From: Candidatus Micrarchaeota archaeon
GTDB lineage: Archaea > Micrarchaeota > Micrarchaeia > Norongarragalinales > SBBD01
Assembly: GCA_038046605.1 (NCBI GenBank)
Contig: JBBSVW010000062.1
Span: forward strand, 1 to 10,016
Reading direction: 5' to 3'
DNA: 10,016 nt
Positions 145 to 9,416 of this stretch are shown one piece after another (position 1 is the first letter of the stretch; each line of letters starts with the position of its first letter). Below the pieces are notes generated by a model. That model saw only the letters and a list, made by a program, of their open reading frames with translations. It searched no databases and was not told the DNA's origin. A program made the translations under genes and the position numbers.

Positions 145-246
145 TGCCTTTCTTTTTTCCGAGGGGCTTTTATCTTCCTTGAAGAGCCGTAAAGCTCTTT
201 GAGGCCATGCAGAACTTTGTTCTGCTTGGTCGCGAAAGAAAAAAGG
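145..246 (-). repeat. Palindromic MITE/REP-like element, copy 1 (upstream of tRNA-Ser)
   Basis: Imperfect terminal inverted repeats (CCTTTCTTTTTTC 147-159 / GAAAGAAAAAAGG 234-246) enclose two hairpins: TTGAAGAGC-cgtaaa-GCTCTTTGA (179-202) and GGCCA-t-GCAGAAC-ttt-GTTCTGC-t-TGGTC (203-231). The reverse complement aligns with 3487-3567. Confidence 0.65.
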
Positions 247-286
247 TTGTGCCGGGATGGCTGAGCGGTCAAGGCGCCAGCCTGGA

Positions 287-325
287 AGCTTTCTTCCTAA
301 ATTGTTTAGGCAGAAAATACAGGGA
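287..325 (+). other. tRNA-Ser anticodon-loop intron, 39 nt (36/37 or 37/38; boundary can slide)
   Basis: Internal hairpin TTTCT-t-CCTAAA-ttg-TTTAGG-c-AGAAA. The best 4-bp central helix is CCTG(281-284)/CAGG(320-323) with GAA bulges, which gives 36/37. A GGAA direct repeat makes 288-326 (37/38) yield the same mature tRNA. Confidence 0.8.
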
Positions 326-358
326 AAGCTGGTTCTCGAAAGGGATCCTGGGTTCGAA

Positions 359-458
359 TTCCTCCGCACGGAGGTTGCCTAACGAACTTCTTTTGGAATG
401 TGTAGATTCCAGAAAATTTTTGTTGCATTCATTTTGGGCGCCGTGCAAGGGACGAATA
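359..458 (+). other. tRNA-Ser T-loop intron at 59/60, 100 nt
   Basis: Strict bulge-helix-bulge: T stem as outer helix, central helix TTCG(353-356)/CGAA(453-456), bulges AAT(357-359) and TAT(457-459), inner helix TCCT/GGGA followed by GCACGG/CCGTGC. Confidence 0.9.
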
Positions 459-497
459 TCCCAGTCCCGGCGCTTTTATTTACGTCAAGTGGATTTG

Positions 498-3072: not shown

Positions 3073-3320
3073 TGTTAATACGTGTGATTCCGAACGCAAA
3101 AAAGTTCGGGATTGCCATCAGGGAAGGCAGGATCATTGTGCGGATAAAAGCCGCCGCAAGGGAAAATGCCGCAAACAAGGAATTGCTTACGGAGCTTAGG
3201 GAATTGACAGGGAAAAAAGTCCATCTGCAAAAAGGCGCAAGGGCCCGGAAAAAGGAAATTGTTTTCGAGGGTTTGGCCGATGAGGATGCAATGGTGCTTT
3301 TAAGGAAGGAGGCGGAATAG
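3072..3320 (+). CDS. DUF167 / UPF0235 (YggU-like) family protein
   Basis: IRVIPNAKK, VRIKAAARENAANKEL, GARARKKEI match the DUF167 pattern (V.P.A....V...P..G.AN.EL...G..SR.K). Start overlaps the rpoD stop (TAATG). Confidence 0.75.
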   Translation: MLIRVIPNAKKFGIAIREGRIIVRIKAAARENAANKELLTELRELTGKKVHLQKGARARKKEIVFEGLADEDAMVLLRKEAE

Positions 3321-3379
3321 GAGCCTACCTTCAATAAAGCCTGCAGACATTTATTGCAGGGGTGGCAGAGCCTGGTCAA

Positions 3380-3434
3380 AAAAAATGAAAAGCCGTCCTT
3401 TTAAGAACAGATCGGCTCGATCATTTTTGTCCAA
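3380..3434 (+). other. tRNA-Leu D-loop intron at ~21/22, 55 nt
   Basis: Relaxed BHB: central helix GGTC(3374-3377)/GTCC(3429-3432) with 3 of 4 pairs, AAA bulges, 8-bp inner helix AAAAATGA(3381-3388)/TCATTTTT(3421-3428), then AGCCG/CGGCT. Confidence 0.82.
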
Positions 3435-3480
3435 ATGCGCAGGGTTGAGGTCTCTGTTCCTTAGGGATGCCTGGGTTCAA

Positions 3481-3728
3481 AGGCCTTGCTTTTCTTTTTT
3501 CCGACCGTGCAGAAAAAAATTTCTGCGCGGCCCCAAAGAGCTTCGCTCTTTGCGGAAAAGAAAAGCGATGGCGCCGCAATGCGCTAGAATCGCGAGATTC
3601 TAGGCATGCGCAGAATCCAAAGATTCTGCCGCAAAGAAAAAAGGTTTTGATGCGCGCATCATATGTGTTTCTTTGGCGCGGTGCCGTCCGCACCTTTCTT
3701 TCAAAAGAAAGGGGCAAGGCGCGGATAG
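3481..3728 (+). other. tRNA-Leu T-loop intron at ~58/59, 248 nt, multi-branched
   Basis: Removal restores GGG-TTCAAAT-CCC. Central helix GTTC(3475-3478)/GGAT(3723-3726) with two G-U pairs, bulges AAA and AGA, closing helix GCCTTGC(3483-3489)/GCAAGGC(3714-3720). Confidence 0.78.
3487..3567 (+). repeat. Palindromic MITE/REP-like element, copy 2 (inside the tRNA-Leu intron)
   Basis: Terminal inverted repeats GCTTTTCTTTTttCCG / CGGAAAAGAAAAGC enclose CCGTGCAGAAA-aaaa-TTTCTGCGCGG (3505-3530) and CAAAGAGC-ttc-GCTCTTTG (3534-3552). Confidence 0.65.
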
Positions 3729-3770
3729 ATCCCAGCCCCTGCATAATTTTTGTAATTGGAGAGGATTTGC

Positions 3771-4130
3771 ATGAAACGAGGAAGTGAAATTGGAAGCTTA
3801 AGGAAGCTAATTGTTGATCTCGAGCGCACCGGGAGGAAGGGCAAGGCGCCAATTTGGACAAGGGTTGCATACATGCTCTCGAAGCCAACGCGCCAGCGCT
3901 GCGAAGTCAACCTGAACAAGATTAATTCCGTTACTAACGATGGTGACGTGATTGTCATTCCGGGAAAAGTCCTTGGAATTGGCAAAATAGAAAAGAAGGT
4001 GAAAGTGGCAGCATTCCGCTTCTCCAAATCCGCCATTTCAAAGATGGCTAAAGCTGGTATCGAACATGTTAGCATTGAAAAACTCCTGGCAACAAACGCA
4101 AAGGGCGCAAAAGTGAGGATCATAGTATGA
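3771..4130 (+). CDS. rpl18e: 50S ribosomal protein L18e (eL18)
   Basis: APIWTRVAYMLSKPTRQRCEVNLNKI, VIVIPGKVLGIG, VKVAAFRFSKSAISK. ATG 3771 follows a GGAGAGG ribosome-binding site. Confidence 0.94.
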   Translation: MKRGSEIGSLRKLIVDLERTGRKGKAPIWTRVAYMLSKPTRQRCEVNLNKINSVTNDGDVIVIPGKVLGIGKIEKKVKVAAFRFSKSAISKMAKAGIEHVSIEKLLATNAKGAKVRIIV

Positions 4131-7188: not shown

Positions 7189-8262
7189 ATGGACGAAATT
7201 GCACTCGAAGTGAAGGGAGAAAGCAAGAAGTGCAGAATCCTAGTGGACGGCCGTGCGAAGGAAGCGATGGAAATTGCGGATGCACTGCACCCATCCAAAA
7301 TCGCGATAATCTGCTCCCCCAACACAAGGAGGATAGCAGAAGGCCTTGCGGATGAGGCAAAAAACGCAGCAATAATTCAGGTTTCCGACGGGGAGCGGGC
7401 GAAAAATTTGGGGTCTGTGGAAAGGCTGTATTCTTCGTTCCTGAAGGCGCGCTTGAACAGGAAATCCGTTGCGATAATCGTGGGGGGAGGCTCGCTCGGA
7501 GATACTGCCGCGTTCGCATGCTCGACTTTCATGCGCGGCATCCGGTTCATTCAGGTTCCGACAACCCTGCTGGCAATGGCCGACAGCAGCATCGGCGGCA
7601 AAAACGGCGTCAATTTCATGGGAAAGAACCTGGTAGGGACATTCGCGCAGCCATCAGCAGTGGTGATTGATTTTTCCCTCCTGAAAACGCTTCCGAGAGC
7701 GCAGATTCAAAACGGGATTGCCGAAATAGTGAAGTGCGGCTGCATCCGCGATGGGGCGCTTTTCAGTTTCATGGGCAAGAACGCTGGAAAAATTATTGGG
7801 CTGGAAGCGGAAGCGCTAGAATTCGCCGTCTCACGCGCAATAAAAATCAAAATGGGGATCGTTTCCAAGGATGAGACGGAAGAGCTGCACGGAAGCGGGA
7901 AGGGCCGCATGCTGCTTAATTTCGGCCATACGGTAGGGCATGCGCTGGAGAGAATAAGCAACTACGGGCTCCAGCACGGGGAAGCGGTTGCAATAGGAAT
8001 GGTAAAAGAAGCGGAAATTTGCGAACGGCTGGGAATTTGCGAAATCGGGACATCGGAAAAAATCGGCAAACTCCTGGAAAAATTCGGCCTGCCAACGCGG
8101 ATTGCTGGAAAAATCCCATTGCAAAAATTAGTTGCGCGGATGAGATTGGACAAGAAGAACATCTCGGGTAAAATCAGGCTTGCAGGGCTGCGGAAAATAG
8201 GGGAAGGGACAATTGTTGAAAATGTTGATGAACGCATGATTCGCGGGGTTTTGGGAAGATGA
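7189..8262 (+). CDS. aroB: 3-dehydroquinate synthase
   Basis: DGERAK, GGGSLGDTAAF, FMRGIRFIQVPTTLLAMADSSIGGKNGVN, KNLVGTFAQP, AEIVK, LNFGHTVGHALE, HGEAVAIGM, DKK. ATG 7189 lies just after the aroF stop. Confidence 0.95.
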   Translation: MDEIALEVKGESKKCRILVDGRAKEAMEIADALHPSKIAIICSPNTRRIAEGLADEAKNAAIIQVSDGERAKNLGSVERLYSSFLKARLNRKSVAIIVGGGSLGDTAAFACSTFMRGIRFIQVPTTLLAMADSSIGGKNGVNFMGKNLVGTFAQPSAVVIDFSLLKTLPRAQIQNGIAEIVKCGCIRDGALFSFMGKNAGKIIGLEAEALEFAVSRAIKIKMGIVSKDETEELHGSGKGRMLLNFGHTVGHALERISNYGLQHGEAVAIGMVKEAEICERLGICEIGTSEKIGKLLEKFGLPTRIAGKIPLQKLVARMRLDKKNISGKIRLAGLRKIGEGTIVENVDERMIRGVLGR

Positions 8263-9416
8263 ACATTGCATTGGTGGGATTGATGGGTGCCGGGAAGAGC
8301 AGCGTCGGAAGGGCAGTTGCACGCCGGCTGAAAATGAGATTCGCAGACACGGATGAGATGATTGAGATGGCGCAATGCGCAACAATTGCGCAAATTTTCG
8401 AGTCGCAGGGCGAGGAGGCATTCAGGCAAATGGAAAAACTGGCAATCCGGAGCGCCGCGTCGGAGGAAAATGCGGTGATCTCAACAGGCGGAGGCGCATT
8501 GCTATTGGCGGAAAATCTCCAGGCCCTAAGGGAGAATTCGGTGTTGTTCTACTTGAAGGCGAGGCCGGAGGTGCTTGCAGAGCGTATCAAGAATAACTTG
8601 GAGAGGCCGCTTCTCACGGGAATGGGCAAAACGGCCAAAATAACGCGTCTCCTGAAGCATCGGGAGGAAAAATACCTGCAGGCGGATTTCGTTATCGATG
8701 CGAATGGCCCGATCGAAAGCACTTCCGCAATAATTTTACATAAATTAAAATCGAAAGCGGCGCTGGTGGCAGTGATTGCGGAAGAGGATATTGGCGCACT
8801 TCTCAGGAAAATCAATGCCGCTAAAAAAAGGGGGGCCGAAATTGCGGAGTTGAGGCTCGACTTCATGAAATCGCCCACGCCAGAGAATGTGAAAAAGGCC
8901 GTTTCAAAATGCCGGAAAGCGGGATTGAAATGCATAATCACTTGCAGGGAAAAGCGAGAGGGCGGCAAGTGGAAAATTGCAAATAAAATGGAATTGCTGA
9001 AAAAGGCCTTGGAAGACGGAGCGGATTTTATCGATCTGGAATTTTCCCTCGGAAAAATTGCTGATTTTCCCAAATCTAAAGTGATCGTTTCGTACCATAA
9101 TCTCAGAAAAACACCACCATTGGGAATTCTTATTCGGCTTATGGAAAAAATGAGCAAGGCCGGTAAAATTGTGAAAATCGTGTGCAAAACGCCCAACTTT
9201 GAAGATCAAAAAGCGCTTATGCGGCTGCTGGAAACAGCAAAAAAAAGGCAAATAAGATTGATCGCATTTGGCGTGGGAAGGGGCTCGAAGAGGAGCCGAA
9301 TCGTTGCAAGCCTGACGGGCTCGCGTTTCGTGTATGGGCATCTAGGTTTTTCGGTAGCTGAAGGGCAGCCAAGCTTTTCCGAGTTGAAAGGGGTGTTCGA
9401 TGGATGGAAGGGATGA
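8259..9416 (+). CDS. Bifunctional shikimate kinase (AroK, P-loop type) / type I 3-dehydroquinate dehydratase (AroD) fusion
   Basis: N-terminal ~165 aa: GLMGAGKSSVGR, FADTD, IFESQGEEAFRQME, VISTGGG, RPLL. C-terminal part: AELRLD, ITCREKREGG, DFIDLE, IVSYHN, IVKIV, SRI, AEGQ. Confidence 0.9.
   Translation: MNIALVGLMGAGKSSVGRAVARRLKMRFADTDEMIEMAQCATIAQIFESQGEEAFRQMEKLAIRSAASEENAVISTGGGALLLAENLQALRENSVLFYLKARPEVLAERIKNNLERPLLTGMGKTAKITRLLKHREEKYLQADFVIDANGPIESTSAIILHKLKSKAALVAVIAEEDIGALLRKINAAKKRGAEIAELRLDFMKSPTPENVKKAVSKCRKAGLKCIITCREKREGGKWKIANKMELLKKALEDGADFIDLEFSLGKIADFPKSKVIVSYHNLRKTPPLGILIRLMEKMSKAGKIVKIVCKTPNFEDQKALMRLLETAKKRQIRLIAFGVGRGSKRSRIVASLTGSRFVYGHLGFSVAEGQPSFSELKGVFDGWKG

Follow-up and report, generated by a model that had tools for sequence, protein, structure and literature searches.

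A 248-nucleotide insert in the T-loop of a micrarchaeal tRNA-Leu(GAG) gene is probably a protein-spliced intron enlarged by nested repeat modules

Results

An interrupted tRNA-Leu(GAG) gene in a conserved gene cluster

The window, the whole stretch of 10,016 nt that was analysed, is contig C62 of genome G000, which belongs to a Micrarchaeota (DPANN) archaeon from groundwater. The assembly holds 1.64 Mb in 106 contigs, is 90.7% complete and has 46.8% G+C. Within the conserved archaeal cluster S13-S4-S11-RpoD-DUF167 protein-tRNA-L18e-L13-S9, the window carries a tRNA-Leu(GAG) gene at 3356-3743 (window positions are used throughout), between rpoD/DUF167 and the L18e gene. Its 388-nt precursor is interrupted by a 55-nt insert in the D-loop (3380-3434) and by a 248-nt insert in the T-loop (3481-3728, for a cut between the tRNA positions 58 and 59). 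The gene and all parts of its inserts described below lie on the forward strand. We regard the T-loop insert as probably a real intron of tRNA-Leu(GAG) that has a relaxed bulge-helix-bulge (BHB) motif and was inflated by nested repeats, and not as a dedicated functional RNA. By sequence comparison, its unusual length is shown to arise from the accumulation of nested repeat modules.

When the raw window was submitted to ARAGORN, no tRNA was called. With the T-loop insert deleted and the D-loop boundaries varied, tRNA-Leu(gag) was called in 52 of 80 boundary combinations. Removal of the T-loop insert alone gave no gene, and removal of the D-loop insert alone led to a different, poor tRNA model whose acceptor stem contained mismatches. 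When 3380-3434 and 3482-3729 were both removed, ARAGORN drew an 87-nt type II cloverleaf that reads GAG at the anticodon, has a variable arm and an acceptor stem of 7 bp, and carries a TTCAAAT loop on a T stem of 5 bp. The excision leaves a canonical, conserved tRNA, as is characteristic of archaeal BHB introns. A first-pass annotation, made from the letters of the window, had described a tRNA-Leu interrupted in the T-loop, and its coordinates and sequence proved correct. It had also expected that standard tRNA finders would probably miss the gene, which was true of ARAGORN and of Rfam on the raw window.

The exons were assigned from the ARAGORN cloverleaf, for exon 1 together with a comparison to the sister genus genome G007. 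Exon 1 (3356-3379) contains the 5' strands of the acceptor and the D stem and part of the D-loop; its 3' boundary is ambiguous within an A-run, at about 3377-3380. The D-loop insert was delimited by deletion constructs and ortholog comparison. Exon 2 (3435-3480) comprises the 3' strand of the D stem, the anticodon arm (GAG), the variable arm, the 5' strand of the T stem and the T-loop positions 54-58. The T-loop insert was placed by fold, cloverleaf and motif scoring, and exon 3 (3729-3743) provides the T-loop positions 59-60, the 3' strands of the T stem and the acceptor, and the discriminator A. The D-loop insert had been absent from the first-pass annotation. Similar short words border it, GGTCAAA on the preceding side and TGTCCAAA at its end, and it has an A-rich/T-rich helix of its own.

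The presence of another tRNA-Leu(GAG) in the genome was a check proposed with the first-pass annotation. No second copy was found in the G000 assembly, where the anticodon-arm exon (exon 2) is unique. The tRNA-Leu(GAG) gene is probably essential.

The T-loop insert consists of a scaffold and two added blocks

The insert was aligned with its closest ortholog, in genome G005, and with its closest paralog, the T-loop insert of tRNA-Trp(CCA) in G000. The 248-nt insert corresponds to the 142-nt insert of G005 plus two blocks, insA (about 52 nt net) and insB (54 nt). In the alignment, the 5' arm (3483-3578) is an inverted M3-like module, which has a U-rich/A-rich hairpin and a GC-rich junction strand and is split by insA; this inverted arm is scored by the M3 model in the G005 ortholog and gives a weak match in the window copy. 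The block insA, with approximate boundaries of about 3501-3557, forms two hairpins in the loop of the first hairpin and is absent from the G005 ortholog. The clean 54-nt block insB (3579-3632), with two AGAATC hairpins, is absent from both the G005 and the Trp-CCA inserts. It is followed by an AAAGAAA...TTTCTTT arm tipped by a small GC hairpin (3633-3675; fold and alignment) and by M3 itself, a terminal module of about 54 nt (3668-3721) that consists of a GC-rich strand, the hairpin 3693-3712 and a closing strand and scored 63.6 bits with model R1.

The scaffold of the tRNA-Trp(CCA) insert is near-identical to that of tRNA-Leu(GAG). The Trp insert lacks insB, and the insA-type block in its corresponding hairpin loop has the opposite orientation. 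In G000, insA has 7 matches including itself, one of them at 181-232 of the window. For insB, 3 matches including itself were found by nhmmer and a fourth by BLAST; the other loci are on C60, on C10 and at C57:6749, and at all three, another type of hairpin element carries insB nested in its apical loop. A 7-nt word around insB, GCCGCAA, was considered as a target duplication and was judged ambiguous, given that the word on the right runs into the bases that, to judge from other copies of the element, close its second hairpin. One of the two options offered in the first-pass annotation, an intron inflated by repeat insertions, thus agrees with what was found, namely the G005 insert with two blocks that have copies elsewhere in the genome, on a scaffold common to many tRNA introns.

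The insert is predicted to be very stable, with a minimum free energy (MFE) of -118.6 kcal/mol against -80.1 +/- 4.7 for dinucleotide shuffles (z = -8.27; 0 of 200 shuffles reached the MFE of the insert). Every helix listed in the first-pass annotation was recovered in the predicted MFE structure: the closing helix, the two hairpins of domain 1, domain 2, whose long stem near 3567-3577/3678-3688 surrounds both AGAATC hairpins as well as the AAAGAAA/TTTCTTT arm, and, at 3693-3712, the final hairpin. An intramolecular triple helix of U-rich and A-rich tracts was dropped as a candidate, all three U-tracts and all three A-tracts being paired as ordinary hairpins. Inspection of the intron by eye revealed no convincing boxes of a C/D-box or H/ACA guide RNA.

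The splice motif is relaxed in the window copy

The cuts 3481-3728 (58/59) and 3482-3729 (59/60) yield an identical mature tRNA. A strict 3-4-3 bulge-helix-bulge (maximum score 13) was scored in each cut register that gives the same mature loop. The window copy reached 9/13 at 58/59 and 7/13 at 59/60, and the scoring therefore prefers 58/59, the register of the first-pass annotation. The strict hBHBh' motif was not found. The relaxed motif, defined as at least one 3-nt bulge beside a 4-bp central helix with a flanking helix, as (alpha-beta)2 and epsilon2 enzymes accept it, is present. Its central helix, GTTC/GGAT, is formed by G53-C56 (3475-3478) with 3723-3726. The bulges are AAA and AGA, at 3479-3481 on the 5' side and 3727-3729 on the 3' side, and the 7-bp inner closing helix pairs 3483-3489 with 3714-3720. 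The term BHB intron in the first-pass annotation was right as to the kind of intron, with the qualification that the motif is relaxed at 9/13 and the strict form is absent. By analogy, we infer that the window copy has a relaxed motif of the kind that epsilon2 enzymes accept.

A complete motif was found at 59/60 in tRNA-Gln(TTG) of G000 (13/13). Near-strict motifs at 59/60 were scored for the Leu(CAG) paralog and the Leu(GAG) orthologs of G004 and G007 (12/13 each) and for that of G006 (11/13). The orthologs of G005, G002 and G003 use the register of the window copy; their partner strands are GGAC, GAAT and GAAC, and the pairing of the central helix is kept.

The splicing endonuclease EndA of G000 is encoded at C20:292-1458 by a single 388-aa open reading frame (ORF) with two catalytic-type domains and matches the epsilon2 enzyme of ARMAN-2 (PDB 4fz2) over the full length (E = 3.5e-126). 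A full-length RtcB ligase is also encoded, so that both the broad-specificity endonuclease and the ligase expected for archaeal BHB introns are present in the genome. In vitro, the epsilon2 EndA of ARMAN-2 cleaves an intron of 13 nt that sits at 59/60 and has a relaxed motif (PMC3239211), and because of this both the T-loop site and the enzymes have a precedent in Micrarchaeota.

M3 recurs in the tRNA introns of the genome

M3 was found on many contigs of G000. In 10 of its 24 fuller copies, a T-stem 3' strand and an acceptor strand follow M3 within 6-9 nt, and the T stem, TTCRA loop and acceptor to which they pair lie upstream. About five further copies are inverted and stand directly after the 5' half of a T-loop. 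When the predicted insert was deleted, ARAGORN recognised a tRNA at 12 of the 16 M3 loci examined.

The genome was then scanned for tRNAs split in the T-loop, and 4540 candidates were reduced to 42 ARAGORN-positive constructs at 24 loci (23 genes, as one on C73 was counted twice). The inserts measure 11-255 nt, and M3 lies inside the insert at 15 of the 24 loci. This list serves for locus counts and not for tRNA identities, since some of the ARAGORN anticodons (aat, aaa) look wrong. The Leu(GAG) gene of the window is outside the list, because its D-loop insert must be removed too. When canonical introns were allowed, ARAGORN called 21 tRNAs in G000, 13 of them with introns of 12-233 nt. The hairpin repeats of the Leu(GAG) intron also fill the introns of about half of the other tRNA genes of G000. 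Elements of the M3, insA and E2/insB type (hairpin modules, E2 being a G-run/C-run hairpin element) occur outside introns as well, beside tRNA 3' ends and at the starts of protein genes.

The first-pass annotation had called the insert very long. This is fair against a review that gives archaeal tRNA introns as "relatively short (less than 100 nt)" (PMC4033280), but G000 commonly has inserts of 140-255 nt; among its unambiguous T-loop inserts, the one of 248 nt is the longest, and yet it is no outlier. We make no claim of a record length.

Long introns were also seen at the canonical position. At C45:21065-21392, ARAGORN called a tRNA-Arg(CCG) with a 233-nt intron, and the census adds a Thr(TGT) on C45 with a canonical intron of 226 nt. 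The window itself holds a second interrupted tRNA, tRNA-Ser(GGA) at 251-473 (+), whose canonical intron measures 39 nt and whose T-loop insert (359-458) measures 100 nt. The S13 gene is consequently shorter than the mechanically called ORF 207-1292, in which the S13 Pfam domain begins at residue 196. The window match of insA mentioned above, at 181-232 (-), is an insA-like module of two hairpins that lies shortly before tRNA-Ser(GGA) and within no intron.

Orthologous inserts differ in whole arms and M3 is spread patchily

The exons of tRNA-Leu(GAG) are identical in the 7 genomes of the genus (G000 and six others), and the T-loop inserts at the same site measure 80, 86, 103, 103, 142, 144 and 248 nt. 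Whole arms are lost or gained between orthologous T-loop introns inside one genus. The D-loop insert has 53-55 nt throughout the genus, is related in genus g3 and is absent from G007. This sister genus has a T-loop insert of 33 nt and shows a compensatory T-stem change across the insert. In genus g3 (G008, G010), the T-loop is intact and an insert is found in the variable arm instead.

Seventeen M3 copies were aligned. The blocks GCGG.GCC and GCAAGGC are invariant, the U-rich/A-rich hairpin is variable, and RNAalifold gave 13 pairs, 6 of which are changed on both sides. A covariance model built from the 17 copies detected M3 in 43 of the order's 68 genomes; the 7 genomes of the genus have 15-34 copies each, and several genera of family f11 have up to 28. 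None of the 7 genomes of family f2 matched, and G007 gave one weak match only. In a sample of 151 genomes of the phylum, 13 matched at E <= 1e-5, among them 4 outside the order with weak scores of about 30 bits. In G084 and G144, which belong to other families of the class, 5-9 weak matches of about 30 bits were seen in each; these may represent a diverged sister repeat family outside the order.

G024, a genome of a different family in 9 contigs, carries M3 both in canonical introns (37/38), namely those of Ser(TGA), Gly(GCC) and Glu(CTC), and in T-loop inserts, namely those of Glu(CTC) and Ala(GGC). In the genomes G003 and G008, M3 occupies T-loop inserts, a canonical Leu(CAA) intron of 61 nt and positions behind intact tRNAs. 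Twenty M3 neighbourhoods were fetched from other genomes; six of them (L119, L120, L122, L124, L131 and L132) gave no tRNA call by the single-insert scan.

These data bear on the alternative that the excised intron, or a conserved core of M3 arms and the A/U-rich arm, is a stable functional circular RNA for which tRNA genes serve as an expression platform, for example as a protein-binding scaffold or as a folding aid that unites distant splice sites. The very stable fold (z = -8.3), the M3 pairing that is kept through two-sided changes, the invariant blocks, the strong M3 matches in several families of the order and the same architecture in canonical and T-loop introns would all suit such an RNA, and BHB introns are circularised in other archaea, as described for Haloferax introns of 31-103 nt that were found as circles (PMC7714728). 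Against it, M3 and insA were found in both orientations relative to the host tRNA, so that the resulting RNAs are complements and thus different molecules. The keeping of the same DNA word in both orientations therefore speaks for a repeat at the DNA level or for mutually pairing arms, not for one functional RNA. The patchy spread with 0 of 7 f2 genomes and a single weak match in G007, the gain and loss of whole arms in orthologous introns of one genus and the occurrence of the elements outside introns also argue against it. For the whole 248 nt, the other option of the first-pass annotation, a structured circular RNA with its own function, is not supported, given insert lengths of 80-248 nt in seven congeners with identical exons and modules in both orientations. 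Because of the two orientations, the patchy distribution and the arm gain and loss among orthologs, nested repeats in a safe site are favoured, and we consider a functional RNA, also one confined to the core, unlikely.

Duplications flank related elements and no mobilising enzyme matches their distribution

Direct repeats of 19-38 nt, spaced 91-201 nt apart, were found around related elements at 7 of 14 loci scanned. Four of these repeats (C9:22964-23183, C57:10075-10248, C89:36681-36905 and C68:6014-6126 in G000) duplicate the tRNA from T54 to just beyond its 3' end, with a hairpin-module element that ends in M3 between the copies. The same duplication of a tRNA 3' end was found in G003 at Arg(TCT) (L126) and in G008 at Arg(CCG) (L133). 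The three others (C60:647-876, C93:9290-9463 and C16:6119-6285 in G000) duplicate the first 20-38 nt of a protein gene with its start codon, and the element lies between the truncated start and the intact gene. In Glu(TTC), the T-loop is repeated exactly ahead of the 3' exon, and in other tRNAs the bases at this place have become the partner with which the T-loop pairs. The near-palindromic sequence of the T-loop makes it difficult to tell a duplicate from a complementary strand. These arrangements suggest that elements of this kind can found introns.

A single gene of the Y1 transposase family (IS200/IS605 TnpA / RAYT) was found in G000, at C9:24297-24650 (-); an M3 element and a tRNA are located about 1.3 kb away. 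Searches for TnpB, tyrosine integrase and reverse transcriptase gave no match in this 90.7% complete genome. The modules could be non-autonomous DNA transposons, as MITE-like or REPIN-like doublets (MITE, miniature inverted-repeat transposable element), that are moved in trans by an HUH Y1 protein in a REP/RAYT-like manner. The scaffold of two inverted arms, the nested and orientation-independent insertions, the presence of one Y1_Tnp gene near M3 without TnpB, and the long direct repeats at the 7 loci would be explained in this way. Inverted-repeat ends and many copies in both orientations, which are typical of MITE-like or REPIN-like elements, were found, while a co-occurring partner transposase was not. 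Y1_Tnp is present in 18 of the 68 genomes of the order, as compared to 43 with M3, and in 2 of 7 genus genomes, all of which carry 15-34 M3 copies; it is absent from the M3-rich genomes G003 (7 contigs) and G024 (9 contigs). To our knowledge, IS200/IS605-type elements make no target duplications and have no inverted-repeat ends, and the Leu(GAG) locus itself shows no flanking duplication. Mobilisation of the REP/RAYT type was rejected as a general explanation, the Y1 gene not co-occurring with M3, and for the insert studied here we hold it to be improbable.

Independent assemblies support the continuity of the insert

Misassembly had been raised with the first-pass annotation as a point to be checked. 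Contigs from two other samples cover 3527-3734 and 3529-3753 and show no difference from the window. In the likely source sample, the contigs 3250-3551 and 3522-4130 overlap in a 30-nt repeat, 3522-3551, which is also present at C89, and this repeat is the only place where the source-sample contigs break. In the G005 ortholog, both flanks of insA are contiguous in one intron, and a chimera is therefore unlikely.

In all, 15 sequencing runs contain part of the window, one of them an RNA run with a share of 0.10. The DNA of run X5 has a joint that passes over 247 nt of the window and carries 103 nt in their place; it comes from a relative with a 103-nt insert and is not a spliced form. In runs X1 and X2, the region of window 3354-3481 comes from a relative that has no T-loop insert, a D-loop insert of 79 nt and a slightly different acceptor stem. 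Because the X1 and X2 samples contain this insert-free relative, intron-bearing and intron-free forms of Leu(GAG) share one groundwater habitat.

A decaying pseudogene, or an assembly chimera joined through the 30-nt repeat, would account for a raw sequence that tRNA finders do not recognise, for the irregular outer side of the splice motif and for the break of the source-sample contigs at 3522-3551 with a second copy of the repeat at C89. These explanations are nevertheless very improbable: identical exons accompany divergent introns in 7 genomes, the assembly yielded no further Leu-GAG copy, the contigs of two other samples cover 3527-3753 exactly, the insA flanks are contiguous in G005, and the hairpin that spans the repeat has complementary strands. 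A self-splicing group I intron, as bacterial tRNA-Leu genes carry it with about 250 nt, would share the size, the type of host tRNA and the heavy structure, but it is practically dismissed by an Rfam search with no match to the catalytic core, 0 matches at the gathering score and four chance-level matches to unrelated families at E up to 10, by the location in the T-loop and not in the anticodon loop, and by a body of simple repeated hairpins that are also found in short introns.

Further along the window, the ORF 8259-9416 (+) fuses a shikimate kinase (SKI) domain with a type I 3-dehydroquinase domain. It sits among shikimate-pathway genes, those of DAHP synthase, DHQ synthase and shikimate dehydrogenase.

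Discussion

We propose that the precursor of tRNA-Leu(GAG) would carry two protein-spliced introns, one in the D-loop and one in the T-loop. The epsilon2-type EndA would cut both bulges, and RtcB would join the exons and probably also circularise the excised intron. Small palindromic repeat modules have accumulated, nested, inside an older and shorter intron, the scaffold of which consists of two M3-type arms in inverted orientation together with an A/U-rich arm and recurs in many tRNA introns of G000 and of the order. The blocks insA and insB were added in the G000 lineage only. tRNA introns could act as safe sites for repeats, since repeats that land there would be spliced out, and the extra 106 nt would need no function of their own.

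Several observations weigh against this interpretation. In an alignment of 67 M3 copies, 96.2% of the cells were paired, 11 of the 13 pairs were changed on both sides, 0 of 500 shuffles matched this and slid controls were much lower; across families, M3 is conserved at 60-77 bits. Such pairing and conservation would fit a selected role of the core as an RNA or in protein binding. The alignment was fitted to the model and leans to structure, and its short and long M3 variants differ by a register shift; the result shows that the hairpin is kept and does not establish the RNA as the selected entity. The outer side of the splice motif is out of register in the window copy, and cleavage of this relaxed motif by the EndA of G000 is an extrapolation from ARMAN-2. 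The repeat scan gave no flanking duplication at the T-loop insert of Leu(GAG), and no mobilising enzyme was identified by the searches for Y1, TnpB, tyrosine integrase and reverse transcriptase. Finally, neither a spliced nor a circular product turned up in the sole RNA run, which contributed two contigs of depth 2 that cover 3332-3482 and continue into a G003-like insert. These contigs represent an unspliced relative or a carry-over of DNA and are uninformative on splicing.

That T-loop introns occur in Micrarchaeota and are handled by an epsilon2 EndA is already known. The system described here is like that of ARMAN-2 (Candidatus Micrarchaeum acidiphilum; Fujishima et al. 2011, PMC3239211) in the phylum, the epsilon2 architecture of EndA, the T-loop site, the relaxed bulge-helix-bulge motif and the large share of tRNA genes that are disrupted. 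It differs in length, as two ARMAN-2 examples from that article have 13 and 25 nt and the present insert has 248 nt. It also differs in that the insert is built of modules that are repeated across tRNA genes and across an order, and in being known from sequence alone.

In the Thermoproteales, families of introns are reported to extend across tRNA types, under the term "intron transposition" (Fujishima et al. 2010, as cited in PMC4033280 and in bioRxiv 10.64898/2026.10.13.758758). Here, too, similar introns occur in different tRNA species of one genome, as seen in the near-identical scaffold of Leu-GAG and Trp-CCA. The phylum and the type of endonuclease are different, and the shared unit is a palindromic module of about 54 nt that occurs in either orientation, at either end of an intron and with nested sub-modules, up to about 250 nt. 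Sugahara et al. 2012 (PMC3293823) proposed, for Caldiarchaeum subterraneum, intron gain by an integrating element of 1.8 kb. As described there, duplicated tRNA fragments flank the inserted DNA, which resembles the four tRNA loci of G000 where the segment from T54 to the 3' end is duplicated. In contrast to the recombinase-encoding 1.8-kb element, the elements found here have 90-200 nt and are non-coding, and no tyrosine integrase was found in G000.

Bacterial REP/REPIN sequences and MITEs are short palindromic units that often form inverted doublets with long hairpins, occur in many copies and are inserted into each other. The modules of the present order are likewise short, palindromic, inverted, multi-copy and nested. 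Unlike REP/RAYT systems, they have no co-occurring Y1 enzyme. Moreover, they are concentrated in tRNA introns and at gene ends and not in intergenic DNA at large, and where flanking repeats are present, these are unusually long (19-38 nt).

The open literature that we searched on tRNA introns together with Micrarchaeota, DPANN or miniature inverted repeats contained nothing on T-loop introns built from repeats; the ARMAN supplement may list longer ones. In two genomic papers on this order, the word intron is absent from the main text. Undescribed in this literature are T-loop inserts of roughly 50-250 nt in about half of the tRNA genes of the order, their assembly from a few conserved palindromic modules that are nested and used in either orientation, and the marking of duplicated tRNA 3' ends and duplicated gene starts by the same modules.

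A wider interpretation, which we put forward tentatively as possible though somewhat doubtful, is that M3, insA, insB and E2 form an undescribed, order-specific mobile palindromic family that both creates and enlarges protein-spliced introns. An element that lands at the near-palindromic T-loop would bring the inner helix by its own inverted arms, and the central helix would come from the T-loop copy, whether duplicated or complementary, so that a splice-competent bulge-helix-bulge could arise in one step. The tRNAs with a second 3' exon behind the element (C9, C57, C89 and C68; G003 and G008) would then be fresh intermediates, as would the protein genes with duplicated starts (C60, C93 and C16).

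The tRNA counts for these genomes are probably too low, as ARAGORN finds 21 genes in G000. With inserts of 33, 80, 86, 103, 142, 144 and 248 nt, one site offers a natural series for the tolerance of the relaxed motif to intron growth and for intron gain. How introns arrive is described as still open in a preprint on Asgard tRNA introns (bioRxiv 10.64898/2026.10.13.758758). If the mobile-family interpretation is true, this lineage would show how archaeal tRNA introns arrive.

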